A stretch of DNA of 51,830 bases from a virus (taxonomy: Duplodnaviria > Caudoviricetes). How positions within the stretch are numbered: the stretch's first letter is position 1; each line of letters opens with the position of its first letter. Below, piece by piece: positions 3,163 to 50,594 of this stretch. The DNA is taken from positions 1 to 51,830 of IMG/VR virus record IMGVR_UViG_3300049926_000051; one strand, given 5' to 3'. The position numbers and the translations under genes are program-made. Below the pieces are notes generated by a model that searched no databases, was not told the origin of the DNA, and saw only the letters and a list, made by a program, of their open reading frames with translations.

Positions 3163-4893
3163 GTGGGCCTATCACTCACTGAGCAGCTTCCGCTAGACGC
3201 GCTGATCTCGGTCCCTGCGAAGAGAACTCGCAAGGCGCGTGACTATCAGACCGCAGCAGTACGGGCGAATCTAGAGGCACTCTCTCGTGTCCGTGGCGTA
3301 CTGGACGTGTGCGCCACGGGCCTTGGCAAGACAGAGATCGGTTGTTGGACCATCGAGGATTGGGCCGCCCAGCAAGAAGGCGACATTCTGTGGTTGGCCC
3401 ACCGTGAGGAGCTTATTCGCGACGCCGCAACGCGCCTGCATCTTAGGACGGGCCTGCCGGTTTCGATCGAGATGGCAGACGAAGAATCGTGGGGTACCAG
3501 AATCGTTGTCGGCTCGGTCCAAACGCTGCGCGAGAAACGTCTCAAACGATTTCGCCCTGACCGCTTCTCTCTCATCGTCACCGATGAAGCGCACAGAAGC
3601 CCCGCGCCGTCATATCGCACGATCTTCAATTACTTTTCGAAGGCCAAGATCCTTGGGCTAACCGCCACTGCGGATCGGCTTGACGGAGTGGCGCAGGGCA
3701 CGGTCTACGACGAGGTCGCTTTTCGCAAGGACATCGATGAAGGGATCAGCGAAGGCTTCCTGGTCCCGATCGTCCCCATCGCCGCATTCATTGACTCGGT
3801 CAATCTCGGTGGAATCAAGACAGTTGCGGGCGACCTGGCCGAAGGCGAGCTCGAAGACGAGATGGTGCGGTCTGTTGCCGCAATCGCACGCAAGACATTC
3901 GATCTAGTCGGCGACCGTCGTACGCTCGTTTTCACGCCCGGCGTTGGTTCAGCGCACAAAGTCTGCGATGCGCTGAATGAGATCCGTTCAGGCTCGGCAC
4001 GGGTTGTCGACGGTGAGACACCAAAGGACATTCGTCGGGAGATTCTTCGAGCGCACCGCGCTGGAGAGTTTCAGTTTCTCATCAACTGTCTGGTGTTCAC
4101 CGAGGGCTACGATGACCCCGGTATCCAAGCGATAGTCAATGCGCGGCCGACTAAGTCGCGGGCGATGTATGTTCAGATCGCAGGGCGAGGTTTGCGCGTG
4201 CTGCCCGGTATCGGTGAATTGGCAACCGAAGATGAGCGTACCGCAGCGATCGCCGCTTCGCTCAAACCGAACTGTTTGCTCATTGACATCACCGGTCACC
4301 CCGGACGTCACAACCTAATCGGCCCCGTCGATCTCCTTGGCGGCAAGTTCCCTCCCGAGGTCAAGGAACGAGCGAAGAAGATCCTTGAGAAGGAGGGCGG
4401 CGACCTAACCCAAGTCGTTGAGAAAGCACGCAACCAACTCGTCTTCGAGGAATCGGAACGGCGGCGAAAGGCCGATGCCAAGCGAGCCGCGGAGGCCGAG
4501 GTCAACGCGCGAACTGCCGAGTTTGAGTTGTTCCGCGACAACCTCCGCGATCAGGGCATCGGGTTGGGCGACTTCAAGCCCGAGTGGCTAGGGCAGCAAC
4601 TCAATGAACGAGATCGCGAGTGGCTTGGTTCAAACAAGATCCCTGCGAAGGGCTTGTCACATTCTGATGTGCTCAAACTCCAACGATCGGCCGCGATGTG
4701 GCGCAAGATCAATGCTGCGACGTTTGCGCAACGAAGACTGCTTGCGCATCTCGGAATACCTGTTAAGCACAATATGCCACGGTCAGTTGCTGAGACACTG
4801 ATCGCGACCCTGAACGCTGGACCGGGTCCGATCACGAAGAAGCAACTCGACACCGTGTTGACTGCTGGTCGTGACGTAGGGGCCGAAGGATGA
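3163..4893 (+). CDS. SF2 (DEAH) DNA helicase
   Basis: ATGLGKT (Walker A), DEAH, TAT, FTEGYD, QIAGRGLR motifs. Confidence 0.93.
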   Translation: MGLSLTEQLPLDALISVPAKRTRKARDYQTAAVRANLEALSRVRGVLDVCATGLGKTEIGCWTIEDWAAQQEGDILWLAHREELIRDAATRLHLRTGLPVSIEMADEESWGTRIVVGSVQTLREKRLKRFRPDRFSLIVTDEAHRSPAPSYRTIFNYFSKAKILGLTATADRLDGVAQGTVYDEVAFRKDIDEGISEGFLVPIVPIAAFIDSVNLGGIKTVAGDLAEGELEDEMVRSVAAIARKTFDLVGDRRTLVFTPGVGSAHKVCDALNEIRSGSARVVDGETPKDIRREILRAHRAGEFQFLINCLVFTEGYDDPGIQAIVNARPTKSRAMYVQIAGRGLRVLPGIGELATEDERTAAIAASLKPNCLLIDITGHPGRHNLIGPVDLLGGKFPPEVKERAKKILEKEGGDLTQVVEKARNQLVFEESERRRKADAKRAAEAEVNARTAEFELFRDNLRDQGIGLGDFKPEWLGQQLNERDREWLGSNKIPAKGLSHSDVLKLQRSAAMWRKINAATFAQRRLLAHLGIPVKHNMPRSVAETLIATLNAGPGPITKKQLDTVLTAGRDVGAEG

Positions 4894-5324
4894 GTACGAT
4901 AACGCAAGAGCATCTCCCGATGCTGAGCGATCGCGAACGAGAGGTCTGGTCGCTGCGGCTCAGCGGGTTAGAACAGCAGGAGATAGCGGACGCGCTGGGT
5001 TGCACGATCTTCGTTGTGCGTACCGCACTTCGTTCAGGAGCGAACCGGGTCGCCCGCGGTGCGCCGGCCAAGGATCGGAACAGAGACAAGTTTCGTGACC
5101 TAGGCAAACTCGGTCGCTGTCACTGCGGGATGCTTCTTCCTTGCTATCACGAGGACCCCATTGAACTGGCCTCACGACGCCGCTTCTTCGACACCCGATC
5201 CTTGGTCGAAAGTGATCCAGAGATTAGGAAAACGCGTCGTGCGACGAAGCGGCTCAACTACGTTCGCGATATGCCCGGCACACAACGACGACAAAGCGAG
5301 CCTGACGCTACGAAGGGGCGATAA
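4890..5324 (+). CDS. sigma70 region 4 / LuxR-type HTH protein
   Basis: LSDREREVWSLRLSGLEQQEIADALGCT..VR, followed by CHC..PC. Confidence 0.75.
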   Translation: MSTITQEHLPMLSDREREVWSLRLSGLEQQEIADALGCTIFVVRTALRSGANRVARGAPAKDRNRDKFRDLGKLGRCHCGMLLPCYHEDPIELASRRRFFDTRSLVESDPEIRKTRRATKRLNYVRDMPGTQRRQSEPDATKGR

Positions 5325-6048
5325 ATGGTCGGTGCTTCTCTACTGCCACGCCGGTTGCAAGACCGAGGACGTACTTGCGGCGGTCGGTTTAACATGGGCG
5401 GACACGACGAAAGACCGCGCCATGGATAAGCGCATCGTTGCGTCATACCCGTACGTCGACGAGCACGGCGTGGTGCTTTACGAGGTCTTGCGCTACGAGC
5501 CGAAAGACTTCCGCCAGCGACGCATGACTGAACACGGCTGGGAGTGGCAACTGGGAGATGTGCGCCGCGTGCTGTACCACCTGCCAGAACTGCTGAGCAG
5601 CAAGCCTAGGATGGCATTCGTCGTCGAGGGGGAAAGGGATGTCGAATCGCTTGAGCGCCTTGGTTGCATTGCTACGACGAATGCAGGCGGAGCAGGGAAA
5701 TGGCGTCCTGAATACTCTGCAAGCCTTGCGGGTCGTCACGTGGTCATTCTTCCCGACAACGACGAACCAGGGCAACGTCACGCTGAGCTTGTTCGGGACA
5801 GTCTCACGGAAGCCGCAAGCATCAAGATAGTTAAGCTGCCTGGTCTAGGCGAAAAGGCGGACGTCAGCGATTGGTTAGTGGCTGGTAATTCACGTGACAT
5901 CCTCGCGGCCTTGATCAAGGAGACGCCGTCGGTGAAACCGCAGAATCGTGACGATCGGATTCGACGGCGTCTCAAGGAGATCGAGGCGAACCTTGGCAGC
6001 ATTTGTGACGCGCTTAGCGAACTGACCGAATTACTTGGAAGGAACTGA
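5161..6048 (+). CDS. DNA primase (Zn-binding plus TOPRIM)
   Basis: CPAHND..YCHAGC zinc finger; VVEGERD, PDNDEPG and DVSDW TOPRIM motifs; GAGG before the TTG start. Confidence 0.9.
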   Translation: MNWPHDAASSTPDPWSKVIQRLGKRVVRRSGSTTFAICPAHNDDKASLTLRRGDKWSVLLYCHAGCKTEDVLAAVGLTWADTTKDRAMDKRIVASYPYVDEHGVVLYEVLRYEPKDFRQRRMTEHGWEWQLGDVRRVLYHLPELLSSKPRMAFVVEGERDVESLERLGCIATTNAGGAGKWRPEYSASLAGRHVVILPDNDEPGQRHAELVRDSLTEAASIKIVKLPGLGEKADVSDWLVAGNSRDILAALIKETPSVKPQNRDDRIRRRLKEIEANLGSICDALSELTELLGRN

Positions 6049-6050
6049 CC

Positions 6051-6251
6051 ATGTTTGAGTTCAAGAATGTTACCGAATCTTCTCGCACGTACCACTACAG
6101 CGACGGCAAGTGCTTTACGATCAAGAACGTTCGTAAGGTTTACGTCAAGCCCGACACCGGTACTCATCGCATCGAAGACGACGCCGGAACGAAATGGATT
6201 GTACCAACCGGTTGGGTGGCCATCGAGTTCAACGGCGAGTGGGTCTTTTAA
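6051..6251 (+). CDS. small hypothetical protein
   Basis: AGGA then ATG; compact beta-rich 66 aa. Confidence 0.7.
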   Translation: MFEFKNVTESSRTYHYSDGKCFTIKNVRKVYVKPDTGTHRIEDDAGTKWIVPTGWVAIEFNGEWVF

Positions 6252-6257
6252 TGATCC

Positions 6258-6830
6258 ATGCACTGGATCAAATCTAGTCGGTTTGACCCACAAGCATGCG
6301 TAGTTGCTGATCGGCATTACAACCGCCAGAAGATCGGATCGCCTCAATTCGTTCCGCCTGGCGGTTGTCTTGTCCTGGCTACCGCTAGATATGGCGCCTT
6401 GTGGGTTACATCAACGCCAAAACCGGAGTACGTCAAGCACGCGTGGGCTGGGTCCTGGGTCAATTCGCTGTTTCGCAATGAGGATAGGTCGGTTTTGTCA
6501 TCCGCTCTGATTACAGAAGCCGTGTCCGCATCGGTTGCCGTCCTAGGAGCGCCGCCGAAAGAGGGATGGGTCTGCGTCGATACATTGCCAGCCGGGGTCC
6601 ATGGGCCGTTGAGGCATCGGTGGCAAAGGGGCGGAATCGTGACATTCGTAGACGCAGACAAGACAAAGAAGAAGCGCGACCCAGGACGTTGCTATGTCCG
6701 AGCTGGTTGGGAGCATGTTGGTTTCACCAAAGGCGGCCTGTGGGCGTTCCAATTACCCCCTGACAAGTTTCCCGAGCCGATACCACCGATGACGTTTCAG
6801 TTGGATCTTGAAAGCATGGTGTCTCAATGA
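6258..6830 (+). CDS. Mom-like (GNAT-related) DNA-modification protein, putative
   Basis: ADRHY..., FRNE...SSALI, IVTFVD...PGRCY..AGW resemble the Mom-family C-terminal motif. Confidence 0.55.
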   Translation: MHWIKSSRFDPQACVVADRHYNRQKIGSPQFVPPGGCLVLATARYGALWVTSTPKPEYVKHAWAGSWVNSLFRNEDRSVLSSALITEAVSASVAVLGAPPKEGWVCVDTLPAGVHGPLRHRWQRGGIVTFVDADKTKKKRDPGRCYVRAGWEHVGFTKGGLWAFQLPPDKFPEPIPPMTFQLDLESMVSQ

Positions 6831-8079: not shown

Positions 8080-8386
8080 ATGCACAAAGAACGCAGGTTG
8101 TTACGGGAAGGCCGGCCATGATGGCGGTTCTTCCGAAGATCGCACGCGACCGTGGTCGCATGATTATCCAGCAGACCCAATCAATCCATCGCATTACAAG
8201 ACCGCCGCCGGCATTGAGGCAATCGACGTCATGGAGGCGTTCGGACTAACCGAAGACGCGTACTTGTGCAACGCGACCAAGTACATCCTTCGGTGCGGCA
8301 AGAAAGACAATGTGCGGACAGAAGTCGCCAAGGCGATTTGGTGGCTAAACCGCAAACTGGAGAGACTTGCAAAAGATGGCTCGTAA
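8072..8386 (+). CDS. DUF3310 (SaV-like) protein
   Basis: DPINPSHY..IEAIDV...NATKYILRCGKK...KAIWWL. Confidence 0.85.
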   Translation: MDRCTKNAGCYGKAGHDGGSSEDRTRPWSHDYPADPINPSHYKTAAGIEAIDVMEAFGLTEDAYLCNATKYILRCGKKDNVRTEVAKAIWWLNRKLERLAKDGS

Positions 8387-8862
8387 TGCCGGCCCAGAAG
8401 CCTGGAAGAAGCGTTCAGGAAGTCGGTACGCCGCGGGAGTTCCTGGACGCGGTTGAAAAGAGGTTCGGCAAACTGCAGTGGGACCTTGCCGCCAATGCTG
8501 ACAACCACGTTACCGATGGCTGGTACGGACCCGGATCGTCGGTAAACGAGGATTCGTTTAGTGCGTGGTGGCATCGTGACGTAAACGGGTTGCTTTGGCT
8601 AAATCCGCCATACGCCAACATCGGAGACTGGGCACACAAGTGCGCCAACGAGTTCGTTGCGGGCGCTAACATACTAATGCTGCTCCCGGCGTCGATCGGG
8701 ACGAACTACTACCGAGAACTCGTTTGGCCCTATGCCAAGACCATCGCCCTTTCGCCTCGATTGACTTTCAATGGCCACTCACAAAGCTATCCGAAGGATC
8801 TTGTCCTAGCTCAATATGCTCCCGGCGCTGCTGGTCAACTTGAGTGCTGGCGCTGGAAGTGA
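8386..8862 (+). CDS. phage DNA N6-adenine methyltransferase
   Basis: TP..F, WDLAA..N and catalytic NPPY; start placed at ATG 8386 (TAATG). Confidence 0.88.
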   Translation: MPAQKPGRSVQEVGTPREFLDAVEKRFGKLQWDLAANADNHVTDGWYGPGSSVNEDSFSAWWHRDVNGLLWLNPPYANIGDWAHKCANEFVAGANILMLLPASIGTNYYRELVWPYAKTIALSPRLTFNGHSQSYPKDLVLAQYAPGAAGQLECWRWK

Positions 8863-14217: not shown

Positions 14218-14775
14218 TTGAGGGCTCGAGTCTATAGTTACCCTAGGCGCAAAACCGGGCGACAGGTGATTCCGATTGAGGAACGTCTGACAAGATATAC
14301 GGACAAATATTGTCCGAGTCGCAGAGAGGACCTGGGTCCGTGCTGGATTTGGACCGGAGTCCGTCGCGCAAGAGGCGGTTACGGAACATTTGGCGTCAAA
14401 GGGAAAACTTATGGCGCGCATCGCTTCTATTGGACAGTTCACTACGGCCCAATTCCCGACGGCATGCATGTTCTGCATCAGTGTGATAATCCGCCGTGTG
14501 TTAATCCCGATCACCTCTTTCTTGGCACCAACGCAGAGAACATGGCCGACCGGGACGCGAAAGGAAGACAGCGACCAGGACGCTTGGCCGGACTAGACCA
14601 CCCTCGAGTGAAGCTGTCATACGACAAGGCGGATGAGATACGGGCATTGGTAGCCAGCGGACGCTTCACTAAGGCCGAGATTGGCAGACAATACGGCGTC
14701 AACCGGCGTTCTATCTGGCTGATTGCTGCCGGCCGTAAGTGGGCCAGGAACGAATCGCAGGGCGCTAGTGCCTGA
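14218..14775 (+). CDS. HNH endonuclease with C-terminal HTH
   Basis: CWIWTG, AHR, VLHQCDNPPCVNPDHLFLGT..ENM.D, then AEIGRQYGV. Confidence 0.92.
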   Translation: MRARVYSYPRRKTGRQVIPIEERLTRYTDKYCPSRREDLGPCWIWTGVRRARGGYGTFGVKGKTYGAHRFYWTVHYGPIPDGMHVLHQCDNPPCVNPDHLFLGTNAENMADRDAKGRQRPGRLAGLDHPRVKLSYDKADEIRALVASGRFTKAEIGRQYGVNRRSIWLIAAGRKWARNESQGASA

Positions 14776-19042: not shown

Positions 19043-20491
19043 GTGGCGCTAGTTCCTCCCCGTCGAGCCGCTCAAGAACTGATCCGCCGGTCGCGCGTAG
19101 CAGCATTTGACCCGCGGGCGCTTTGCCATGCCGGCCAACTACCGTACACCGTCAGTCGCGCCAAGCGCAAGGTCGTACGTACGCCGAGGCGTGTCGGTAA
19201 GACGTACGCTGAGGCCATGGTGCTATTGCGGGGCGCCATGGAGCCCCCATGGGGCAATCAGTTGTATATCACGCTGAGCCTCAAGAATGCGAAGCGGATG
19301 GCATGGCCGACCATCAAGAAACTTAACAAGGAGTTCGACCTCGGCGGCCAGGTCAACGATGCCGAGGGAATGATTCGGTTTCCGAACCTTCCCAATGAAC
19401 CCATTATCTACCTCGGCGGGTGCAAAGACTCCGCAGAGATTGAGAAAATTCGTGGTTACGAGGGTGGCTTAAAGCGAGTCATCATCGACGAGGCACAGGC
19501 GATTCGCAAATCCCTGTTCGGCCCGCTGATCGAAGAGATCGTCGAGCCGGCCCTACTGGACTACAACGGTGAGTTGGACGTGGTCGGGACTCCCGGCGCC
19601 GTCAAGGCCGGTTACTTCCATGACATCGACGTTGGCGACAAGTCCGCAAGTTGGGAGCACTTCTTTTGGGACGCCTATGCCAATACCTTCCTTGCGGAAA
19701 AGCGAGGCCAGGCGACCGACGAGATGCTCGAGCAAGTCCGGCGAGAACACAACTGGCAAGAGGACTCGCCGCGGTATGTCCGTGAGTACCTTGGGCAGTG
19801 GGTTACCGACACCGACTCGCTTGCGCTGCATTACGATGCGGAGCGCAATAGGTGTGATTGGCAAAACGAACCTGTCCCTGGTTGGACCTACCTCCTGACC
19901 TTCGACATCGGATTTGAGGATGCCGACGCAATAGCCGTTCTGGGCTATCCTCCTAACGCCAGGAAGCTTCATCTCGTTCGCGAACTGATTACCCGCAAGC
20001 AGGGGATAACTGAGCTTGGAACGCAGCTCAAGACGTTATATGAGACCTATCACCCGTTGCAGGTTATCGGCGACTTGGGCGCACTGGGCAAGAAGATCGG
20101 CCACGAGCTAGAAGCGCGGTGGCACCTGCCCGTCGAGGCAGCAGAAAAGAGCCGCAAGGCGGAACACATCGAACTCCTGGACGACGGCTTGCGTACTGGC
20201 GCGATGCTGGCGCCACCTGACTCGGTGTTCGCGCAAGACTGCGCAATCGTGCAATGGGATGCTGACCAAAAAGCGAAGGGTAACCTCGTGTTCGACGCAT
20301 CGTTCCATAGTGACGTTGTAGATGCCTGCCTCTATGGCTACCGCGCTGCCTTCCACTGGACCGTTGACGACTCGGCGCAACCTGACGTCCCGATCGAAGT
20401 AGCGCAGCACCGTGAAGCCGTGCGGGCAGAGTTGCGCGAAGTAAGGCAGCAGGAAGACGACGCGTATGAACGGAACATGGGATGGGGATAA
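19043..20491 (+). CDS. terL: terminase large subunit
   Basis: PRRVGKT Walker A, IIDEAQ Walker B, GTP coupling motif, REYLGQW, and nuclease acids (FDIGFED, HSDVVDA). Confidence 0.93.
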   Translation: MALVPPRRAAQELIRRSRVAAFDPRALCHAGQLPYTVSRAKRKVVRTPRRVGKTYAEAMVLLRGAMEPPWGNQLYITLSLKNAKRMAWPTIKKLNKEFDLGGQVNDAEGMIRFPNLPNEPIIYLGGCKDSAEIEKIRGYEGGLKRVIIDEAQAIRKSLFGPLIEEIVEPALLDYNGELDVVGTPGAVKAGYFHDIDVGDKSASWEHFFWDAYANTFLAEKRGQATDEMLEQVRREHNWQEDSPRYVREYLGQWVTDTDSLALHYDAERNRCDWQNEPVPGWTYLLTFDIGFEDADAIAVLGYPPNARKLHLVRELITRKQGITELGTQLKTLYETYHPLQVIGDLGALGKKIGHELEARWHLPVEAAEKSRKAEHIELLDDGLRTGAMLAPPDSVFAQDCAIVQWDADQKAKGNLVFDASFHSDVVDACLYGYRAAFHWTVDDSAQPDVPIEVAQHREAVRAELREVRQQEDDAYERNMGWG

Positions 20492-21628: not shown

Positions 21629-21916
21629 ATGGCATTCCCTAGCGCCGAAGAACTACGCGCCCTTCTCTCTGCTGCCCGCGACGCCGGGTGTACTCACCTC
21701 AAGATTTCGCCAACCGGCATCGAGGCGGAGTTTGCGCCCAAGTCGGTCCTCCAGGAGATCAACGAAACCGTCCCGCTGGCTTTCGATCCGCTGGATATCG
21801 TTCGTCGAGAGGTTGCCGCTCAGACGAAGACGTCGGCCGTTGACCTTTTCGACGTGGTCGCCTCCGGTGGTCGTATCGTCGATGCTGGCAACCCTGACCC
21901 GACGGCAGCCCAGTAA
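21629..21916 (+). CDS. small protein upstream of the portal
   Basis: MAFPSAEELRALLSAARDAG...; TAATG coupling to the portal. Confidence 0.7.
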   Translation: MAFPSAEELRALLSAARDAGCTHLKISPTGIEAEFAPKSVLQEINETVPLAFDPLDIVRREVAAQTKTSAVDLFDVVASGGRIVDAGNPDPTAAQ

Positions 21917-23808
21917 TGGGAGCCACGGGCGGCAACGCATTCCTGAGCCAGAACGGCCGCTGGTGGAATTCCGATGAGGCGTCGCTTCCGACCACGCTTG
22001 CCGCAGTGGCGGCTAATCTAGAATCCTACGACTTCGAGCGGCGTGCTCGTAACCTGGTCTTCGCGCGTCTAGCGACGAACCGAGATCTCCCGAACATCTA
22101 CGGCCTGAGCATCACGCGGTCGAACGTCCGCGCGCTGGACTTCAGCGACTGGCGAGCGCCGGTCTTCAATGTCGTTGGCTCGAGTGTCGAAACGCTGGTC
22201 AACAAAGTCGGGCGTAACAAGCCATGGATCCTGTTCTTGACCGACGGTGGCGACTTCAGCGCCCGCATGGCCGGCAAGAAAAAGTCCCGCTTCGTCGACG
22301 GCATCTTCCACGAAACCAACACGTATCGCCTGACTCGCCAGGCTTGCCAGGACGCGCTGACCTACGGCGACGGGCTCATCAAGGTTTCGGCATCGCTCGA
22401 CGGCAAGTCGATCGTCCATGACGTCGTCCTGCCTGACGAGATTCTGATCGACCCGTGGGACGCGCTGTATTTCGGCAAGTGGCCCCGATCTCTCATCCAT
22501 CGCACGTTCGTTTCGCGCACAGAGCTCCTGAGCATCTTCGGCGACGACGAAGCGATCCGCTTCGCGATCGAAACCGCGCCCGGTTCGTACCAAGGCCCGA
22601 TGTGGGCAGGCGGCGCAACCGGCAACCAGCACAACGCAATGGTTGCCGTACTCGAAGGATGGAAGCTTCCCGACGCTGACGGTACACCAGGGCGTCACGT
22701 GCTTTGTATATCGGATCGAGTTGCCCTGATCGACGAAAAGTACAAACGTAAGCGATTCCCGTTCGCCAAGATGGCGTGCGTTAGCGCGGGGCGTGGGTTC
22801 TGGAACATCGGCATCCCTGAGATTCTCGGGCCGTTCCAATCGAACATCAATCGCACTCAGATGGTGATCGACGAATGCCAACGACGCCTTGCGTCAGGGC
22901 GCTGGCTTGTCCCGACCACATCTGGTGTCACCGACGACGCCCTTGGCTCGCGGGCCGCGGGAATCATTCGCCACAACCCGAATCAGCCTCCCGTGTTCAT
23001 TACGCCAGCTGCAGTACCCCCTGAGCTCTATCGGCACCTTGAAGACACGATCCAGCGAGCCTACAAGCGAGTCGGTATCTCCGAACTCGCCGCTCAGGCG
23101 CAGAAGCCCGCTGGCCTGAACTCGGGCGAAGCACTGCGCACGTTCGAGAACAGCGAGTCCGAGCGTTACGTAACCCTCGGCATGGCACTTGAGGATTTCG
23201 TCCAGGATATCGCGACGCTCGATCTTGAATTGGCCGCTGAGATTGAGCCCAAGGTTCGGGCGCCGCGCGGTGGCGGCATCGACGTCATTGATTGGTCCGA
23301 GATCAAGGGACTCCGCGACTCCGACGCCATCATGAAGGCCTTCCCGGTCTCATCGCTTCCGACAACGCCCGCAGGTCGTTTGCAACGTGCGGCTGAGATG
23401 TTCCAGACCGGCCAAATCAGCAAAGACGACTACCTGCGAATCATCGATTATCCCGATACCCAATCGATCATCGATTTGCAGACCGCAAGCCGCGATGCTA
23501 TCGATTTCATGCTGGACAAAATCGTCGAGGAAGGCATGTTTGAGTCGCCCGAGCCCTACATGGACTTGACGCTTGCGATCACCGTGGCGCAAAACCGGTA
23601 CCTGCGCGAACGGACCCAAGGATGTCCGGAAGATCGTCTTGAGTTGCTTCGTCGCTTCATGGACTCCGCCAAGGATCTTCAGGACAAGATCAACGGAACT
23701 GGCCAGAATGCTGCCCCGGGCCAGCCGAACGTGAACCAGGCTCAAGCAACGGCCGCTGGTCTTCCTCCGCCTGTCCCGCCCGTGATTGGTGCGCCGAAGG
23801 CGGCTTAA
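21916..23808 (+). CDS. portal protein
   Basis: 630 aa after terL; FPF..., RVGISEL..QKPAGLNSGEAL portal-like motifs; P/Q/A-rich tail. Confidence 0.85.
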   Translation: MGATGGNAFLSQNGRWWNSDEASLPTTLAAVAANLESYDFERRARNLVFARLATNRDLPNIYGLSITRSNVRALDFSDWRAPVFNVVGSSVETLVNKVGRNKPWILFLTDGGDFSARMAGKKKSRFVDGIFHETNTYRLTRQACQDALTYGDGLIKVSASLDGKSIVHDVVLPDEILIDPWDALYFGKWPRSLIHRTFVSRTELLSIFGDDEAIRFAIETAPGSYQGPMWAGGATGNQHNAMVAVLEGWKLPDADGTPGRHVLCISDRVALIDEKYKRKRFPFAKMACVSAGRGFWNIGIPEILGPFQSNINRTQMVIDECQRRLASGRWLVPTTSGVTDDALGSRAAGIIRHNPNQPPVFITPAAVPPELYRHLEDTIQRAYKRVGISELAAQAQKPAGLNSGEALRTFENSESERYVTLGMALEDFVQDIATLDLELAAEIEPKVRAPRGGGIDVIDWSEIKGLRDSDAIMKAFPVSSLPTTPAGRLQRAAEMFQTGQISKDDYLRIIDYPDTQSIIDLQTASRDAIDFMLDKIVEEGMFESPEPYMDLTLAITVAQNRYLRERTQGCPEDRLELLRRFMDSAKDLQDKINGTGQNAAPGQPNVNQAQATAAGLPPPVPPVIGAPKAA

Positions 23809-24022: not shown

Positions 24023-25153
24023 ATGGATCCCGTCACGGCCGTTATCACGGACGCAGGTAGCGCGGCAACTGGAACCGCGGACGCCGTCGCTGGCAATCCG
24101 AATCCGTCTCTCAGTGCCGATATGGCAACTGGAACGGACACCGCTTCGACTCAGGGAGAATCGGATTCAAGCGGGGCTCATACCCCCGCCTCAGCGGGTT
24201 CGACTCCCGCCCCTGGCACCACTCCGGGCGAAACTCCGCCCGAGCCGCGCGCCAATGTGACGGCAAGGCTGGCCGCCCTGTCCCGGGAGAACCGGGAGGC
24301 AAAGCGCATCGCGCGCGAAGCCGGGAACGCCCGGAAAGCTGCTGAAGCCAGGGCGGCCGAAGCTGCTGCGAAGATATCGGACTTCGACGCCTTGATCGCC
24401 AAGGCAAAAGCCGACCCGTCAACTATCCCCGCTCTGGTCGATAAACTCGGTATCACGTTCGAGCGCATCGTTGAGTCTTATGCCGCGTCGGGAGAGGAAG
24501 CAACGGCCGAGGCAAAGACCGCGAAGGAATTGGCTGACATTCGCGCCGAACTGGCGGAGACGAAGAAGCTTCGTGAAACTGAACTGGCCGAGAAAACGCG
24601 GCGTGCTGAAGAGTCGCAGCGAACAGAAGTCATCTCGACTATCTCGCAGCGAATCGAAAAAGCAAAAGACAAGTTCGAAATCTGTGCGCGGCTCGGAGAC
24701 GAAGCGGCAAACGATGTTTTTAAGCTCGTGGTCGCGACCTGGGAGAAAGCCGGGCGCCCTGAGTTGATGCCGGGTGAGTTCGAAGAGGCTGTTGACGCGG
24801 CCATGGAAGTCACCGAGGCAGGGTACGAAGATCGCGGTAAGAAGCTCGCGAAGGCAGCGCGCGCAGCGGCTACGCCCGGGGCTACCGCAACCAACGATTC
24901 CAACAAAGGCGGTCTGGTCAAACAGGGCGTTGCTCTGCCTGACTCGCTGACTGCTAAACCACTGAGCGACAAAGATCAGGACATTCTAAGAGGGCTCACC
25001 GACAAGACGGCCCCGGCGTACGACTCCCAACGAGCGAAGCCGAGAACAATCAACTCATCTCTGGGTGGTTCCGCCCCTCCGCGCCAATCGACGCCGGGAG
25101 CGATGGACCCGCGCGACGCACTTAGGGAAGTGCTGCGCCCGTACGTCCGGTAA
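24023..25153 (+). CDS. capsid scaffolding protein
   Basis: Between portal and capsid; disordered N-terminus, A/E/K coiled coils, short C-terminal helix. Confidence 0.78.
   Translation: MDPVTAVITDAGSAATGTADAVAGNPNPSLSADMATGTDTASTQGESDSSGAHTPASAGSTPAPGTTPGETPPEPRANVTARLAALSRENREAKRIAREAGNARKAAEARAAEAAAKISDFDALIAKAKADPSTIPALVDKLGITFERIVESYAASGEEATAEAKTAKELADIRAELAETKKLRETELAEKTRRAEESQRTEVISTISQRIEKAKDKFEICARLGDEAANDVFKLVVATWEKAGRPELMPGEFEEAVDAAMEVTEAGYEDRGKKLAKAARAAATPGATATNDSNKGGLVKQGVALPDSLTAKPLSDKDQDILRGLTDKTAPAYDSQRAKPRTINSSLGGSAPPRQSTPGAMDPRDALREVLRPYVR
24150..24221 (+). tRNA. initiator tRNA-Met(CAT)-like element embedded in the scaffold CDS; D loop truncated
   Basis: Anticodon arm CGGGG-CTCATAC-CCCCG, 5-nt variable loop, T arm GCGGG-TTCGACT-CCCGC, 3' CCCTGGC-A-CCA. 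Confidence 0.6.
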
Positions 25154-40541: not shown

Positions 40542-40785
40542 CGCGCTGACACGCGCGATGAAGCTGCGACGGACTCATCCTGGTCATCATCTCGGCGGCG
40601 CGGATGCACAGCTCATGGCCATTTTCGCGAGCCCATTTCAGACAGAACTCGGCGCAGTCGTAGTTTCCGTCGTCGACGAGAACATGCAGACAGCATCCGA
40701 CGCCGCCCTCTGGCGAGGCGTAAATCTGCCGTACTAGAGCCGCGACCTCGGGCACCTTGGGCCGGTCGGGAGGGTATCTTGTCAT
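40525..40785 (-). CDS. hypothetical phage protein
   Basis: GCCLHVLVDDGN motif; last gene of the leftward arm. Confidence 0.65.
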   Translation of the reverse strand: MTRYPPDRPKVPEVAALVRQIYASPEGGVGCCLHVLVDDGNYDCAEFCLKWARENGHELCIRAAEMMTRMSPSQLHRACQRARRSE

Positions 40786-41198
40786 CCCTCATCCTCCATC
40801 GGTTCGATCGTGAGTTCAACGCGCGGGTTCTTGCGGTCCAGTCTTAAGCGCGAGCCGTCCCAACTCTTGATCTGAGAATCGTCGGCCAGTACGCACGGGA
40901 CACGGTTCCTTCGCCCGCCGCCGCCCTGTAGCGCATCGCCGATGGCCTGGAAAAAGTTGTGGATGTCACCGGTGTCGCGCGCGCGATAGATTTGGGCGTT
41001 TACGGTGACATCGCTCCAGAATGTCGGCAGACCAGGGACCGCGCGCGGAAGCACCTGTCGCCGCAACTGTCCTATCGCGTCCTTCTCCCAGTCCTTCGAC
41101 TTCTTCGACGGCATGACTCGGATACCGCCGCCCTTAGGACGGAAGATGCGCTGACTGGTTTTCTTCGTGGCAGGCGACCCGATTATCGTGAGCTTCAA
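40782..41198 (-). CDS. rusA: RusA-like Holliday junction resolvase
   Basis: GSPATKK, DIHN....IGDAL, VLADDSQI, NPRVEL; start placed at TTG 41198. Confidence 0.85.
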   Translation of the reverse strand: MKLTIIGSPATKKTSQRIFRPKGGGIRVMPSKKSKDWEKDAIGQLRRQVLPRAVPGLPTFWSDVTVNAQIYRARDTGDIHNFFQAIGDALQGGGGRRNRVPCVLADDSQIKSWDGSRLRLDRKNPRVELTIEPMEDEG

Positions 41199-41497
41199 GC
41201 TCGCTTCTCCTTGGTTGCGACGGTTTCGATAGCAGCATCGGCGGCCACGAACCAACTGTCAGACGGTTGCTTGTCATCACATTGGCCATGGCGATACGCG
41301 GCCCACACCCGGCGTTGCAACTCTCGCGGCACCATGCGCCAGTGCCGTAGGCACATGAGCATCTCTGGCTTCGTCTGAACTGTGCAGCCTCGCGCATGGC
41401 AGTGGTGAGCGCCGACTAGGCTGTGCTTGGTAGCCGGAAAGTGCCCATCCTCAAGGACGCACTGGCCGCCACTTGAATGAACAAGAGGGCACCTCAT
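41195..41497 (-). CDS. Cys/His-rich hypothetical protein
   Basis: HCHARGC...LMCLRHW.MVP motif. Confidence 0.65.
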   Translation of the reverse strand: MRCPLVHSSGGQCVLEDGHFPATKHSLVGAHHCHARGCTVQTKPEMLMCLRHWRMVPRELQRRVWAAYRHGQCDDKQPSDSWFVAADAAIETVATKEKRA

Positions 41498-41546: not shown

Positions 41547-42215
41547 TCATGGCGCCCTGCCAGTCTCGGGGAAATTCAGCGCTGCAAACTCACCGAACAC
41601 GGCCAGTGCCCATGCGTCATAGACCCGTGCCGCTGCTTCTGGATTGTCGAATGTCCCCAGCCAGCGACGGCGGCGGTAGAACCTAATATTTGCGATCCAC
41701 CGATTGGCCTTCTTGTGGAAATGAACGCCTCGATATCCGCTTCGATTGTTCTTATTGATTCTCGCGTTGGCCGAGTTCTGTGTGTGCGTAGCCGGCCTCA
41801 GATTGGAGATTCGACAGTCAAGCCGATTGCGGCTCTCGTGATCGAGTATCGCCGCGTCCTGTTTGCGGGCCAGTCTCCAGACAAAGCTGTGTAACGACAG
41901 GAGAACGCGCCTGCCATCCAGTGAGCGCACGGTGGTCGTCGCGTAATGAAAACCCTCCCTGGTCTTGTGCGCATACCAGGCGTGGCGACCAACCTCGCTT
42001 GCGAACTCGGTATCGATGAGCGCCTGCATACCCTTGTCGAGTTGCACGATCGAAACGCTGGCCACAACATCATGCTGAACGATCGGGCGCAGTTCTCTCG
42101 TCTTCAGCGGGGCCAATGGCCTTCCTGTCTGCGATTGTCGCCAGTGAGACATGCAGTATCCGTGCGCCATGTGTTTTCTGACGCAACCACCAAAAACACA
42201 GAGGCGCGCGCTCAT
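41547..42215 (-). CDS. HNH-AP2 homing endonuclease
   Basis: LDHESRNRLDCRISNLR (HNH), SGYRGV...W.A.I...LG.F...AAARVYD (AP2); N-terminal C/H finger. Confidence 0.92.
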   Translation of the reverse strand: MSARLCVFGGCVRKHMAHGYCMSHWRQSQTGRPLAPLKTRELRPIVQHDVVASVSIVQLDKGMQALIDTEFASEVGRHAWYAHKTREGFHYATTTVRSLDGRRVLLSLHSFVWRLARKQDAAILDHESRNRLDCRISNLRPATHTQNSANARINKNNRSGYRGVHFHKKANRWIANIRFYRRRRWLGTFDNPEAAARVYDAWALAVFGEFAALNFPETGRAP

Positions 42216-43069
42216 TTCCGCCTCCAAAGACCAGAACGCCACCCGGCGGCGTAGGCGAGGCGCTGGTGCTCAGCGAGAGTGACATCGAGGAAGTTGCCGT
42301 TCTCGTTGCTCCACCAATAGCAGCCGCCCTGTGCGCCGCAGTCGCACGCATCGCGAAACCTCACTTGCGCCCCCGCCTCGCGCGCGTGGCGCACGCTTCC
42401 ATCGAAACGATACACCGCTTGCAATCGACCTCGGCGAGCTGACTCGTGCAGAACACGCCCGCAGCCCCCGACGTAGTGCCGCATAAAGCTCGGTAGTCGT
42501 CAGTTTCCCGGTCGATAGCTAGCAGGTGCGTTTTCATCGCTTGACCCGCCTCGCGCGCGTGGCGCGGTCGAGCGTTACAACCAGGACTGTCAGCGCCATT
42601 CTGCCCGCGTCAATCGCCAAGCCGTCGCGCACGGCCCGCAGCGTCTTCAGCGCCTCCCGTTGCAGCGCGCGGATTCGACGGCGTTCAAGAGTAGCGCCAT
42701 CCTCCTCGCCAACCTCGAAACCGGCGTCCCACGCGGCATCGACTCGCTTGTCGGTTTCGCTTTTCAAGCTCCCTCCGTTCCGCGGCGCTTGAGGCTGGCG
42801 CAGTACAGACAGTTGCCAACGTCTCTATCAGCTCGTGATAGCGCCATACATTCGACCGAGCAGTAGTCGTCGTTGCGTAGGTCGCGACTAGCCTCACCCC
42901 GTTCCCGCGCCTCGGCGATGGTTTGGGTATACGATTCCGCAAGTTGGTCGCAGTGCCAGCCATGCGACCACCCATGCGATGCGCACCACGGCATACCGTT
43001 ACGCTCGGCCCAGTCGTGCGCCAGTCGCCGACCGTGCCGCCTATCCTCATCGGTGATACGGGAGCTCAT
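42212..43069 (-). other. four small coupled hypothetical genes (42212-42364, 42361-42537, 42534-42767, 42764-43069)
   Basis: Successive ATGA, GTGA and TTGA overlaps. Confidence 0.55.
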
Positions 43070-46360: not shown

Positions 46361-47102
46361 GTGAAAATCAACGGCGAAGACGTCGAGCTCGTCACTGACT
46401 TCGCGACATTGCGGAGCGGGATGATTGTATGGGTTACGGCGTGCGGCGGGTGCCAAGGGTTTCACCGTGTAATTCTAATAAAACACACCCCTTGGCCGGT
46501 TCTGTTTCACCCGCCGGGCACGAAGGCGTGGCTGTTTCTTCCGACCGTGCACGGACTTGACAGATTAGTGGTCGCTCCCAGTGCAGTCTCTAATGGCATC
46601 GTCTTTCGCGTCGTTGACGGATTCTCTCAATCGTCCGGGCACAAGGAGCACATTGGCACTAAACCCAATGCTCGGGTGCGCGCGTGATCTCTGACGATAT
46701 CGCCCGGGTTCTGGCCGATCGCTTTTGGGAACGTGATCCGCTCAGTTTCCTCGGTCTGTGCGCCGAGTGCCGCGACCACGGAATCACGCTTCTGGATTTC
46801 ATCAAACAACGGACCGAAGAACTGCGAGAGATGCGAAAGAAGGTTGCAGCATGAAAACGCTTGAGGAGTTTACGGGAACGATGTTGGCGATGTCCGCCGC
46901 GCTGCTCATGGGCCGCATGTACGACGACGCAAGGGCCATTGTGGCGTTTCCTGCGCCTGTTGGCACCAACGCATCAGCCAACGCGGCATGGGTAAAGTTC
47001 CAGGCCGCGTCCAAAGCGCTAATCGCGGCGCTGGACGAATGCGAATCTGTCGGCGGTGATTTGCAGCAGGCGGAAAAGGCCGCTGCTGGAGGCATGCAGT
47101 GA
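46361..47102 (+). other. hypothetical genes (46361-46687, 46851-47102)
   Basis: ORFs in the rightward early operon. Confidence 0.5.
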
Positions 47103-47329
47103 AGCGTCTCATCCTTGGTCTGTCGCTTCTTTTTGCGGGTTGTGAGTCGTCGACTCAGTTTGGCAAGTGCGTCGATATCGCCAAGGACAATGCCGATCCG
47201 AAGCTGGAATATGAGCTTTCGGCGCACAACGTGATTCTTGGAATCGTGTTCGTTGAGATGGTTTTTCCACCGCTCATTGTTGCGCTGTCGGAGACGTATT
47301 GCCCGACAGGGATTAAGGCGAAGCCGTGA
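47099..47329 (+). CDS. small lipoprotein / membrane protein
   Basis: MKRLILGLSLLFAG-C lipobox plus a second hydrophobic segment. Confidence 0.75.
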   Translation: MKRLILGLSLLFAGCESSTQFGKCVDIAKDNADPKLEYELSAHNVILGIVFVEMVFPPLIVALSETYCPTGIKAKP

Positions 47330-48981
47330 CCGCCGCCCCGTCAGAAGCGCCTAAACAGCGCGTCGTATTGATCGACCTTTCGTCCCTGTTCTGGTCCGCC
47401 TGGATGGTCACCAAGGACGTCTCTGCGGTCAACATCGTGCGCGGCAATGTCCGTAGGTGCTTTCAGCCGGGCGATCTCGTCATGGTCTGCACCGACGAAG
47501 GTCGATCGTTTCGTAAGGATCTACATCCCGATTACAAAGCGACGAGAGAAGAGAAAGAGCAGTCCGCGCTAGGTGAGTTGGCACGCCTCAAGGATATCCT
47601 CAAGCGTGACGGTTACCTACTGACGGGGGCAAAAGGCTTCGAGGCCGACGATGTCATCGCAACGGCGACCGAGAAAGCGGTCTCGGCGGGTCACGAGGTT
47701 CTGATCTGTTCGTCGGACAAAGATCTTGTGCAGTTGCTTCGACCCGGCGTACGCGCATTGCGAACTCACGTGTGGCAAGAATTCAGCGCCGATGAAATGG
47801 CGGAAAAGTTCGGGGTACAGCCACGACAGATAGGAGACTTACTTGCGCTGACCGGCGACACCAGCGACAACATCAAAGGTGCTCCTGGCGTTGGCATGAA
47901 GAACGCGGCTTCTGCGTTGTTGCAGTGGGACAACCTTGACGCGCTAGGGGTCGCTCTTGAGCAAGACCCTGGCGCTTGCGGTCGAACTCAGCCAAAGAAG
48001 AAGGGCGAGCTCGGCGAGCCGTTCAAGTGGGCCAAGTCGATCAACGACAACTGGGATCAGGTGTTGTTGGCCCGTAAGCTTGTCGAGCTTCGCAAAGACG
48101 CTCCGATCGACTTCGAGCAAATCTATGTGCGGCGCGATCCGCAGCCGCTTGTGTCCGTCGATGAAGAAGAGGAAGACCAAAGCGTGAACTTTCAGGACGA
48201 TCGAATCAGCGGGACAACTCCCGCTAAAGAGCTTGCGCCGACTACCGCCGTTCCTCCTACGGCAAACAGTCGGCCTGCAACGTCGGAGACCACTGACGGC
48301 AAGGCAAATGGTGTCCAGAAGGGGGCAGATACGGGCGAACCGAGGCCATCCCACAACCGGGACGCTCAAACGACCCAGGCAGGCGCCGTATCTGCCCCCG
48401 ATGTGACCAAGCAAACGCAGTCCGGCGAGGACTTGCTTGCGTCGTTGCTCAATCAAAAAGGCTTCGTCCCGGTCGAGTATCACCAGGCGCTTGAGCCCCG
48501 CAACGCATCGGAGTCGGAACGCCTTGCAAAGAACCTGTTCAACTCTCGCGTCTACAAGAAGTTCCCGACGTGGGAGTCAATCCACGCGACGATCTTGCGT
48601 GGTCGTACGATGGGCGTATCGGCTATCGCGTCGCTTGACGTGTTCCACATCGTCGACGACAGGCCTTGTCCTCTCGCGTGGCTATTGATCTCGCTTGCCG
48701 AACGTGACCCAAATTGCGAATACATCTACTGCACTGAGACCACGGCGACCTCGAGCACCTGGGAGGCGAAGTCGAAAAAGAACCCAAAGCCGCAGCGTTT
48801 CATGTTTACTGAGGAAATGGCTCGCAAGGCTGGGTTGTTTGACAAACCCAAGTCCGCATGGATTACGAGACAGCAACAAATGTTGATCAAGTCGTGCGGG
48901 TCGATTATGGCTCGCATGGCATTCCCGACGGCTACCCTTGGTCTCTACTCCGCTGAGGAGATGGGAGGCAGTGAAGAATGA
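47326..48981 (+). CDS. 5'-3' exonuclease (Pol I N-terminal / FEN family) fused to a RecT-like single-strand annealing domain
   Basis: LIDLS, FRK..PDYKA.R, EADD, SDKD, GDTSDNIKGAPGVG; C-terminal FT.EMA.KAGL...W....QML...AR.AFP....GLYSAEEM. Confidence 0.85.
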   Translation: MTAAPSEAPKQRVVLIDLSSLFWSAWMVTKDVSAVNIVRGNVRRCFQPGDLVMVCTDEGRSFRKDLHPDYKATREEKEQSALGELARLKDILKRDGYLLTGAKGFEADDVIATATEKAVSAGHEVLICSSDKDLVQLLRPGVRALRTHVWQEFSADEMAEKFGVQPRQIGDLLALTGDTSDNIKGAPGVGMKNAASALLQWDNLDALGVALEQDPGACGRTQPKKKGELGEPFKWAKSINDNWDQVLLARKLVELRKDAPIDFEQIYVRRDPQPLVSVDEEEEDQSVNFQDDRISGTTPAKELAPTTAVPPTANSRPATSETTDGKANGVQKGADTGEPRPSHNRDAQTTQAGAVSAPDVTKQTQSGEDLLASLLNQKGFVPVEYHQALEPRNASESERLAKNLFNSRVYKKFPTWESIHATILRGRTMGVSAIASLDVFHIVDDRPCPLAWLLISLAERDPNCEYIYCTETTATSSTWEAKSKKNPKPQRFMFTEEMARKAGLFDKPKSAWITRQQQMLIKSCGSIMARMAFPTATLGLYSAEEMGGSEE

Positions 48982-49346
48982 TCCAGGAACAAAATACGTT
49001 CACGTTTGCCGGCACCGTTGTTAAGCGATGGGTCGCAACATCAGGCAAGTTCGCGACGCTCAAGGTATCGAATGTTACCGACGGCAGAGCAACGAAGATG
49101 GACTTCGTGAGTTTCGACTGCGTCAACGACATTGCGACACTGAGCGAAAACGACACCGTCAAGGTAACTGGACGCATGGGGATCAAGAAATTGACGAGCA
49201 AAGATCGTCAGGACGTCATGATCGACGGCTACGCCGCGTGGGTGCCCCAACTGGTCATAACAAAGGTCGAATCGCAAAAGGCGAGCAAGATTCCGGTTGA
49301 CGACGGTGACGCTTCGCCTACCGACGACGATCAAATACCGTTCTGA
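48978..49346 (+). CDS. ssb: single-stranded DNA-binding protein
   Basis: OB-fold-like pattern (V.VTGR) and acidic tail ending DDDQIPF. Confidence 0.8.
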   Translation: MIQEQNTFTFAGTVVKRWVATSGKFATLKVSNVTDGRATKMDFVSFDCVNDIATLSENDTVKVTGRMGIKKLTSKDRQDVMIDGYAAWVPQLVITKVESQKASKIPVDDGDASPTDDDQIPF

Positions 49347-49619: not shown

Positions 49620-50594
49620 TTGGGTATTACCGACGACGAGTTAATAGCTCGCGCGCTGGAGATAGTTAAGCAGAGAGTTGCGGGTACTAGCGCACCTTCG
49701 CTTACCGTCGCGCAGTTGTACGACCTATATGAGGCGGATCACAACCATACGCGTGGGTGGCGTGTGGTTGGTGGTCGCCTGCGCATGCTTCGGGATACCG
49801 TCTACGCTGACGGCATCCCATGCATTGGTGTGCGCGATGTGATGAGCCTCCGCCCTCTCGACTGGGAGGACTACCGGCGATATCTCGCGGCGCAGGAGTT
49901 CGCCGTTGGACGAAAGCGATCGGCTTGGACGGTCGCCTTACACCTGATCTCGCTCAAGACGATGATCAATTGGGCGGTTGAATCGGGACGCTTGCCGTAC
50001 AACCCGCTCGACCGGGCGAAAGCTAACGCCAAGAGCAAGCGAGAGATCGCGCCGACAGAGGCGCAGATATCGCTGCTACTGTCGCAGGCTGACCTACGTA
50101 TGCGCTATGTGATCTTGGCCGCATGCGACGCGGGCATGCGCCGAGACGAACTCCGGCTCTGCGAACGCGCCTGGGTAGACCGCAAGGCGAAGCAGATCAA
50201 GCTAGACGCCAAGGTCTGTAAGCTTCGTAAGGGCCGTGTCGTCCCGGCTACCACGCGTCTCCTGGACGCAATAGCCGCGATTCCTGAGCATGTTCGGCTC
50301 CCTTGGATACTGACCAACCCAGTGACAGAAGCGGCCTACAGCGACAGCCTGTTGGATCGCAATTTTCGCGATCTCGCCGATAGCGTCGGCCTGATCGGAG
50401 TGCGTATCCACGACTTGCGGCATGCGTGCGCAACTCACATGGTCGCACGCGGTATTCGCCTAACTCGCGTGCAGAAGATCCTTGGCCACGAGCGGCTTGA
50501 GACGACATTCCGTTACGTCAATGATCAGGCCGAAGACCTGAGCGAGGTCATCGCCGTCTTTGAAGCCGGGATCGAAAAAGACAAGCGGCGCTAG
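49620..50594 (+). CDS. int: tyrosine recombinase / integrase
   Basis: GMRRDEL (R), K, HDLRH, LGH, RY catalytic residues. Confidence 0.93.
   Translation: MGITDDELIARALEIVKQRVAGTSAPSLTVAQLYDLYEADHNHTRGWRVVGGRLRMLRDTVYADGIPCIGVRDVMSLRPLDWEDYRRYLAAQEFAVGRKRSAWTVALHLISLKTMINWAVESGRLPYNPLDRAKANAKSKREIAPTEAQISLLLSQADLRMRYVILAACDAGMRRDELRLCERAWVDRKAKQIKLDAKVCKLRKGRVVPATTRLLDAIAAIPEHVRLPWILTNPVTEAAYSDSLLDRNFRDLADSVGLIGVRIHDLRHACATHMVARGIRLTRVQKILGHERLETTFRYVNDQAEDLSEVIAVFEAGIEKDKRR

Follow-up and report, generated by a model that had tools for sequence, protein, structure and literature searches.

The virus record IMGVR_UViG_3300049926_000051 of IMG/VR (Duplodnaviria, Caudoviricetes) is a single contig of 51,830 bp with a CheckV completeness of 98%, and the whole of this stretch (hereafter referred to as the window) was analysed. 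At 47326-48981 it carries an open reading frame (ORF) of 551 amino acids (aa), in which a Pol I-type 5'-3' exonuclease, or flap endonuclease (FEN), domain is connected by a low-complexity linker to a C-terminal domain that we conclude, from profile comparisons and a structural model, to be a divergent Red-beta/RecT-type annealase core. A gene for an SSB-like protein overlaps its 3' end. The features of the locus, with domain bounds taken from the envelopes of hidden Markov models (HMMs), are as follows.

47326-48981, + strand: fusion ORF (FEN nuclease, linker, putative RecT/Red-beta-type annealase core); GTG start, 551 aa
47350-48135, + strand: Pol I-type 5'-3' exonuclease / flap endonuclease domain; aa 9-270, PF02739 and PF01367
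48136-48477, + strand: low-complexity linker between the HMM envelopes; aa 271-384, 114 aa
48478-48966, + strand: predicted RecT/Red-beta-fold single-strand annealing core; aa 385-547
48978-49346, + strand: SSB-like gene; 122 aa (P0002), ATG overlapping the fusion stop codon (ATGA), GGGAGG 9 nt upstream

The GTG start codon of the fusion ORF is preceded by AAGG 8 nt upstream and overlaps the stop codon of a small upstream ORF (GTGA). This 76-aa ORF (47099-47329, + strand) begins MKRLILGLSLLFAGC, and its N terminus, read by eye, resembles the signal of a lipoprotein, lipobox cysteine included. By custom HMMs cut from an alignment of 64 homologues, the FEN domain extends over aa 9-270 and the C-terminal core over aa 385-547, with 114 aa of linker separating them and four residues after the core. 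The original prediction had described a 551-aa ORF at these positions, with a full set of Pol I-type 5'-3' exonuclease motifs at about aa 10-270, a low-complexity linker of about 100 aa and a characteristic C-terminal end motif. The ORF is present as described, the motif set is borne out by Pfam matches and invariant carboxylates within aa 9-270, the linker is somewhat longer at 114 aa, and the protein does terminate ...ARMAFPTATLGLYSAEEMGGSEE. In-frame GTG or TTG codons at 48403, 48433 and 48445 were considered as internal starts for a free annealase domain and set aside, as none has, by eye, a well-spaced Shine-Dalgarno sequence.

The FEN domain is recognized by two Pfam models: 5_3_exonuc_N matches aa 38-163 (E = 1.3e-25; 90.5 bits, cut-off 34.3) and the H3TH model 5_3_exonuc matches aa 164-264 (E = 5.4e-18; 65.7 bits, cut-off 40). 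PHROGs assigns it to phrog_107 'exonuclease' (E = 1.2e-34), and the NCBIfam models for Pol I, Xni and 5'-3' exonuclease match it in part. The closest PDB sequences are the Pol I enzymes of Mycobacterium and Thermus, Xni, and the T5 and T4 flap nucleases, with E values of 2e-25 for Taq Pol I and 1.6e-21 for Xni. Nine acidic residues (D17, D57, E106, D108, D109, D131, D133, D178 and D181) are invariant in the 64 full-length homologues, as are Y70, K71 and R74. In the HMMER alignment, the acidic residues correspond to D18, D67, E117, D119, D120, D142, D144, D188 and D191 of Taq Pol I, and Y70, K71 and R74 to its Y81, K82 and R85, positions that we take to be the catalytic metal ligands and the helical-arch residues, respectively. 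Judged by these residues, the nuclease active site looks intact and the domain seems fully functional. The Pol I 5' nuclease, Escherichia coli Xni and phage T5 D15 share both Pfam domains, the metal-binding carboxylates and the arch residues with the fusion; however, they have no annealase, and the fusion FENs form a separate clade, as described below.

The C-terminal domain is far less conspicuous in sequence. A profile of the full-length protein matched only FENs in the PDB, and the annealase signal required a profile of the C-terminal domain. Pfam RecT (PF03837) matches aa 491-549 with 24.1 bits, against a cut-off of 24, and covers only positions 131-190 of the 198 in the profile; phrog_561 'RecT-like ssDNA annealing protein' (E = 0.0028) and TIGR01913 bet_lambda (17 bits, far under its 77-bit cut-off) are likewise weak, and all three fall on the same final 55-60 residues. 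Of 1.84 billion representatives searched by HMMER with aa 385-551, 3,391 reach E <= 1e-3; 1,067 of these remain at a threshold of 1e-10 and 33 at 1e-30. Eight of ten short family members match Pfam RecT, with a best E value of 9e-9, and the matched segment invariably lies in the final third of the model. We then built a profile (A2) from the window domain and 29 short family members. Searched against 177,635 PDB sequences, it gave a single match at E <= 10, lambda Red-beta (7UJL; E = 0.0055), in which the two share the motif W...ML(R)K...AR..(F/Y)P...G(L/I)Y..EE, nearly invariant in the family.

An AlphaFold2 model computed from the A2 alignment (mean pLDDT 93.1, pTM 0.86) points to the same relationship. 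The original prediction of an annealase at the C terminus called for a fold comparison, and this comparison bore it out: the two best Foldseek matches in the PDB are the Red-beta N-terminal domain 7UJL (E = 1.1e-4, probability 1.00, TM scores 0.60/0.62 over 165 columns) and the Listeria-phage RecT 7UB2 (E = 8.5e-3, probability 1.00), and nothing else is close, the following match having an E value of 0.15. VIA, which is independent of Foldseek and covered 48,161 chains, also retrieved 7UJL (Z 9.3 over 135 residues, 3.3 Å) and 7UB2 (Z 6.5 over 147 residues), with double-stranded RNA-binding domains (Z 5-5.7), RAD52 (Z 5.2-5.3) and Sak (Z 4.0) at lower ranks. In the 7UJL match, model residues 11-154 are superimposed on chain residues 3-169, which correspond to the entire Red-beta N-terminal domain.

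The C-terminal partner-binding domain of Red-beta/RecT-type annealases is absent. The tail beyond the core is four residues long in the window protein; across 227 fusions its median length is 3 aa and the longest is 24 aa. In Red-beta, this domain binds lambda Exo and SSB (PMC9772228). The Red-beta core of residues 1-177 alone forms an annealing intermediate in a solved structure (PMC9512822), and a core without the C-terminal domain is therefore a plausible annealase. The missing domain could also be taken, together with the low identity of 12-14% to characterized annealases and the sharing of part of the fold with double-stranded RNA-binding domains (Z 5-5.7), to mean that the Red-beta fold is a mere DNA-binding or oligomerization module, which raises the affinity or processivity of the nuclease without catalysing annealing. 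We consider this improbable. The match extends over the complete Red-beta N-terminal domain, the motif held in common with Red-beta is nearly invariant, and, as shown below, an annealase of a different family is joined to this FEN lineage as well, an arrangement that makes little sense unless selection acts on annealing.

Both domains are present in a single chain in 227 of the 259 homologous proteins collected, so the two-domain chain occurs far beyond chance. In these 227 proteins the median linker length is 72 aa and the longest linker measures 280 aa, with one negative value where the two envelopes overlap, and it is rich in alanine (15.3%), proline (14.5%) and glutamate (10.8%). The reading frame is kept across this freely varying segment, which argues for a real disordered tether rather than an erroneous joining of two genes. 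The window, homologues whose linkers differ greatly in length, and a second assembly all keep the frame open: a 51,223-nt contig produced by another assembler spans 47326-49346 with 0 differences and 0 gaps. This contig comes from the only run that holds the sequence, which is probably the source of the record, and the comparison was made with contigs rather than raw reads; these two circumstances leave some room for a fusion created by misassembly or by a frameshift joining two genes, or for a decaying gene. Such an origin is nonetheless extremely unlikely, given 227 homologues from many contigs with both domains in frame at 35-57% identity, the invariance of the catalytic residues and the agreement of the two assemblers.

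The architecture, which the original prediction proposed to look for elsewhere, belongs to a large conserved family. A query with the whole protein found 1,607 proteins at E <= 1e-3 among 8,000 candidates. The best 120 of these are 439-583 aa long and all contain both FEN Pfam domains, and about 45 of them carry a precomputed PF03837 match. Those of the 120 that bear a name are called '5'-3' exonuclease' or something similar of Pol I type, so that the annealase half is invisible in databases. With the C-terminal domain as query, a FEN domain was also present in 120 of the best 150 representatives (custom HMM, E <= 1e-5), and several of the remaining 30 start inside the FEN domain or the linker, as fragments would. 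Two of the 30, the stand-alone relatives P0176 and P0205, have an N-terminal core and then about 110 further residues, which is the layout of classical RecT or Red-beta. The 120 best full-length hits all carry a FEN domain, as do 120 of the 150 best for the C-terminal domain alone, the frame is kept despite a variable linker and the C-terminal partner-binding domain is consistently absent, and these sequence features together indicate an architecture that has been selected rather than one that arose by accident.

The complete fusion occurs at 16 IMG/VR loci. Among 50,697 GenBank phage records, none covers at least 80% of the fusion and 989 match the FEN half only. The C-terminal domain is found at none of the 80 GTDB contig loci retained, a scan that was saturated by cellular Pol I and is uninformative about hosts; the names attached to relatives are metagenome-assembled-genome labels only (Dormibacteraeota and Mycobacterium sp.). 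No fusion of an annealase to a FEN or other 5'-3' exonuclease is described in the literature searched, which comprised listings, abstracts and passages of mostly non-subscription sources without their supplements. Within the same bounds, neither a pair of surveys on annealases (PMC11783212, PMC8093625) nor a pair of reviews on exonuclease/annealase systems (PMC11611040, PMC7496540) mentions the fusion, and no earlier account of the kind that would make the architecture well described came to light. The fold comparison, the search for the architecture, the frame across the linker and the literature thus all came out in favour of the original prediction. Well-studied phages have the nuclease and the annealase as two proteins; the joined form is common in uncultured phages, yet apparently undescribed.

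The gene downstream of the fusion is predicted from its overlapping ATGA and the upstream GGGAGG to be translationally coupled to it, in agreement with the original prediction of an SSB coupled downstream; the identification as an SSB stands less well. The SSB family PF00436 has no match at E <= 1 in the whole window, and P0002 has only OB-type matches with E values of about 0.1. No homologue of P0002 was found in a collection of 5.8 billion clusters. One homologue, 38% identical and in the same overlapping position, occurs at a related locus (L001), and a metagenome scan gave seven loci and no further homologue. An hhalign comparison of P0002 with an alignment (A4) of five ORFs downstream of related fusions, four of which are canonical SSBs by Pfam, gave a probability of 4.6, that is, no profile similarity. 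The AlphaFold model of P0002 is all-beta with five main strands and a low pLDDT of 59. With this low-confidence model, the best Foldseek match is the SSB 7vum (E = 0.01), followed by many other SSBs and other OB proteins, and the ESM Atlas model has a TM score of 0.66 to a cluster that is 100% PF00436. The tail of P0002 is acidic and ends DDDQIPF, and the canonical SSBs beside related fusions end DDIPF, DDLPF or DDSIPF. P0002 thus has a probable OB fold and, on the strength of a low-confidence fold and its tail, is called SSB-like only. A canonical SSB is encoded in 4 of the 16 related records, each time zero or one gene downstream of the fusion, and the SSB association is recurrent but not obligatory. 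A predicted complex of the full fusion with the SSB-like protein scored 0.01 and was not used as evidence.

A second type of fusion was found among matches that had been classed as containing the FEN domain only. Two complete virus genomes of roughly 48 kb, L015 and L019, encode proteins of 582 aa (4977-6725) and 575 aa (5028-6755), respectively, in which a FEN domain is followed by a long low-complexity stretch and a C-terminal annealase. The C-terminal 170 residues match phrog_3290 'single strand annealing protein' with E values of 6.5e-50 and 1.9e-49. In the ESM Atlas, Rad52_Rad22 is the family of 22 of the 30 nearest named clusters of this domain (scores 0.95-0.96), and hhalign detects no relation between it and the window annealase domain (probability 0.03). 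The FEN-Rad52/Sak-type fusions thus share the FEN lineage, the long low-complexity linker and the C-terminal position of the annealase with the window fusion, but their annealase belongs to another family (phrog_3290) that is not detectably related to the window domain. A query with the Rad52-type domain at fusion lengths found 591 proteins at E <= 1e-3; among the 120 matches listed, 46 have FEN domains and most of the others are stand-alone proteins of about 320-345 aa. Further associations were observed among the relatives of this annealase: intein/Hint domains (PF14890, PF13403) in P0327, P0331, P0335, P0339, P0340, P0344 and P0347, and a fusion to a C-5 cytosine methylase in P0330. Two other FEN proteins carry extra segments with no Pfam or PHROG match, namely 168 aa at the C terminus in a 438-aa protein (L026, 1980-3296) and about 180 aa on each side in a 621-aa protein (L025, 4341-6206).

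One relative, P0319 (455 aa, on a 53-kb contig), has the Rad52-type annealase at its N terminus and a C-terminal YqaJ domain, a lambda-Exo-like exonuclease, at aa 254-386 (E = 1.5e-25). It may be a gene-call or frameshift artefact; if taken at face value, the single joining of a Rad52-type annealase to YqaJ suggests that the FEN domain occupies the slot of the classical resection nuclease.

To place the fusion FENs, we inferred a tree of 101 FEN domains, drawn at random after removal of domains covering fewer than 180 HMM positions (IQ-TREE quick search, LG+G4, midpoint root). The fusions contributed 30 of 214 RecT-type and 20 of 48 Rad52-type members; to these were added every one of the 21 stand-alone viral FENs and 30 out of 80 from cellular Pol I. 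All 50 fusion FENs form one clade (SH-aLRT 99), free of cellular Pol I and stand-alone viral rows. Within it, the Rad52-type fusions are nested among the RecT-type ones, the clade of their most recent common ancestor holding 23 rows, three of which are RecT-type. The simplest reading of these sequence relationships would be a FEN lineage specialized as the covalent partner of an annealase, the annealase module having been exchanged between families.

We also searched for other enzymes that could serve the same annealase. Six-frame family searches of the window detected no YqaJ, PDDEXK_1, family-A polymerase or canonical SSB, YqaJ and PDDEXK_1 being the PD-(D/E)XK families searched individually. 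YqaJ and DNA_pol_A are each found in 0 of the 16 related virus records that bear the fusion, seven of which are at least 90% complete. With no DNA_pol_A in the window or these relatives, the FEN domain is not the 5' nuclease of a phage polymerase, and by the families searched it would be the only recognizable nuclease available to the annealase.

In our view the ORF probably specifies a phage recombinase of the 'exonuclease plus annealase' kind in single-chain form, with a predicted activity of resection, annealing and trimming. In such an enzyme, the FEN domain would thread a free 5' end and digest that strand in the 5'-to-3' direction from an end or a nick, exposing a 3' single strand, while the tether would hold the annealase core at the emerging strand. 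The exonuclease is thought to load the annealase onto the 3' overhang in two-component systems, with Red-beta contacting Exo and SSB (PMC9772228), and the covalent link could stand in for the contact between Red-beta's C-terminal domain and lambda Exo. The annealase would then oligomerize on single-stranded DNA and pair it with a complementary strand, either another resected end or the lagging-strand template. At the annealed joint, the same FEN domain could cut 5' flaps and leave ligatable nicks; an early model of Red already assigned the resolution of joints to the flap activity of Pol I (PMC7496540). The coupled SSB-like protein would keep single-stranded DNA unfolded and RusA would resolve branched products. 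For a temperate phage relying on host polymerases, likely uses would be to circularize the genome or form concatemers, to replicate by recombination and to repair DNA.

Several observations weigh against this interpretation. The RecT signal in sequence is marginal (24.1 bits in Pfam over 60 of 198 profile positions, E = 0.0055 for the PDB profile match), the TM score is about 0.6, and identity to solved annealases is 12-14% (13% to the Foldseek match). Pol I-type FENs are mostly distributive, and long-tract resection by one is uncertain. A 1:1 fusion would also, oddly, put a nuclease on every subunit of the expected many-subunit annealase filament. A split form of the system, with adjacent FEN and RecT genes, did not emerge from the 50 stand-alone-FEN loci searched (a further 14, L067-L080, were left out): RecT is present in two of these 50 virus records, in neither case near the FEN gene. 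The surroundings of stand-alone relatives of the annealase domain are uninformative: four such relatives lack both a FEN gene within 4 kb and any recognizable nuclease neighbour, ten ORFs scanned next to L169-L171 included no recognized nuclease, and for the relative P0205 no viral relatives were found. The downstream gene has no SSB family match, and an SSB-like gene is missing beside the fusion in 10 of the 16 relatives. Finally, the FEN tree comes from a quick search of a random sample with a midpoint root, and the fusion to YqaJ comes from a single protein of a single contig.

The main rival to end resection, although not exclusive with it, is a role in joint processing or replication, in which the annealase delivers the FEN domain to 5' flaps and RNA primers and host nucleases resect double-stranded DNA ends. 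As a family, FENs are structure-specific nucleases that cut flaps and remove primers. A helicase and a Toprim protein are encoded by the phage, but no polymerase, so its lagging strands would be made by host enzymes. Early Red models already required a flap endonuclease to finish joints (PMC7496540). However, stand-alone phage FENs remove primers without an annealase, whereas the fusion FENs constitute their own clade and are always joined to one. An equivalent annealase is once fused to the resection exonuclease YqaJ, and no YqaJ match in the window or the 16 related records, and no PDDEXK_1 match in the window, points to another resection enzyme. We therefore regard a role confined to joints and primers as rather unlikely, though less so than the binding-module and artefact explanations above.

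The single-chain recombinase that we favour resembles lambda Red (Exo and Red-beta) and Rac RecE/RecT ('SynExo') in combining a 5'-3' nuclease with a Red-beta/RecT-fold annealase in a phage-borne, SSB-linked system. It differs from them in that one polypeptide takes the place of two and the nuclease is FEN/PIN-like instead of PD-(D/E)XK. The annealase of the window also lacks a counterpart to the C-terminal domain by which Red-beta binds Exo and SSB (PMC9772228). FEN-type nucleases are not without precedent in viral recombination. T7 gene 6 exonuclease acts with gp2.5, a separate single-stranded DNA-binding or annealing protein. The vaccinia FEN1-like nuclease G5 provides another precedent (PMC9415595). 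In both cases the proteins are separate and have different annealing partners, and no covalent fusion is reported there. Extending the comparison, a dedicated lineage of FEN-fold nucleases would add a third class to the recombination exonucleases of phages, next to lambda Exo/YqaJ and RecE, with an obligate covalent annealase partner whose RecT/Red-beta and Rad52/Sak modules are interchangeable; we hold the chances of this broader proposal to be evenly balanced.

The remainder of the window is that of a tailed phage genome, in which the following genes were located (strand given where recorded).

49620-50594, + strand: tyrosine integrase, PF00589, E = 6e-17
40785-41255, - strand: RusA Holliday-junction resolvase, PF05866, 23.9 bits, above the cut-off
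3163-4893: SF2 helicase
5161-6048: Toprim protein
8266-8862: Dam
19043-20491: large terminase
21916-23808: portal

This soil phage is temperate, given the integrase gene near the fusion ORF, and RusA is the other recombination gene of the genome. A Pfam scan of 61 further window ORFs added only RF-1, Peptidase_S74, CHAP, DUF4406, SU10_adaptor, RusA and DUF7768; the RF-1 domain (peptide chain release factor / peptidyl-tRNA hydrolase) is found in one ORF with an E value of 2.6e-15. A tRNA-Met (CAT) lies at 24150-24221 (+ strand) within the structural-gene region and overlaps a mechanically called ORF at 24023-25153. Two HNH_3 endonuclease genes (41547-42242, - strand; 14218-14775, + strand), one with a C-terminal AP2 DNA-binding domain, are probably homing endonucleases. 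Both contig ends (51133-51830 and 1-527) lie in one 24-nt tandem repeat of at least 17 copies, which encodes 8-aa units such as ENSSVVAW and belongs to a gene whose product has DUF7666 at its N terminus. Although classed as 'linear', the record is probably a circularly permuted complete genome broken inside this repeat.

Phage exonuclease/annealase pairs underlie recombineering, and one reason for their limited performance in hosts other than E. coli is that the protein partners have to match. Two-component phage recombinases are a known kind of system; the covalent FEN-annealase form is apparently undescribed, and the size of the family and the exchange of annealases read from the FEN tree add to the interest of the locus. 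From a natural enzyme in one chain it could be learned to what extent a simple tether can replace the exonuclease-annealase contact; such an enzyme would establish that a FEN-fold nuclease can replace lambda Exo or RecE, and would offer a one-gene recombineering system in which the cognate SSB is optional. The annealase swap on one FEN scaffold would serve as a natural experiment on pairing requirements. If the broader proposal of a dedicated lineage is true, one-gene 'resect, anneal and trim' recombinases would be widespread in uncultured soil phages and could provide compact recombineering tools for hosts in which lambda Red and RecET work poorly.

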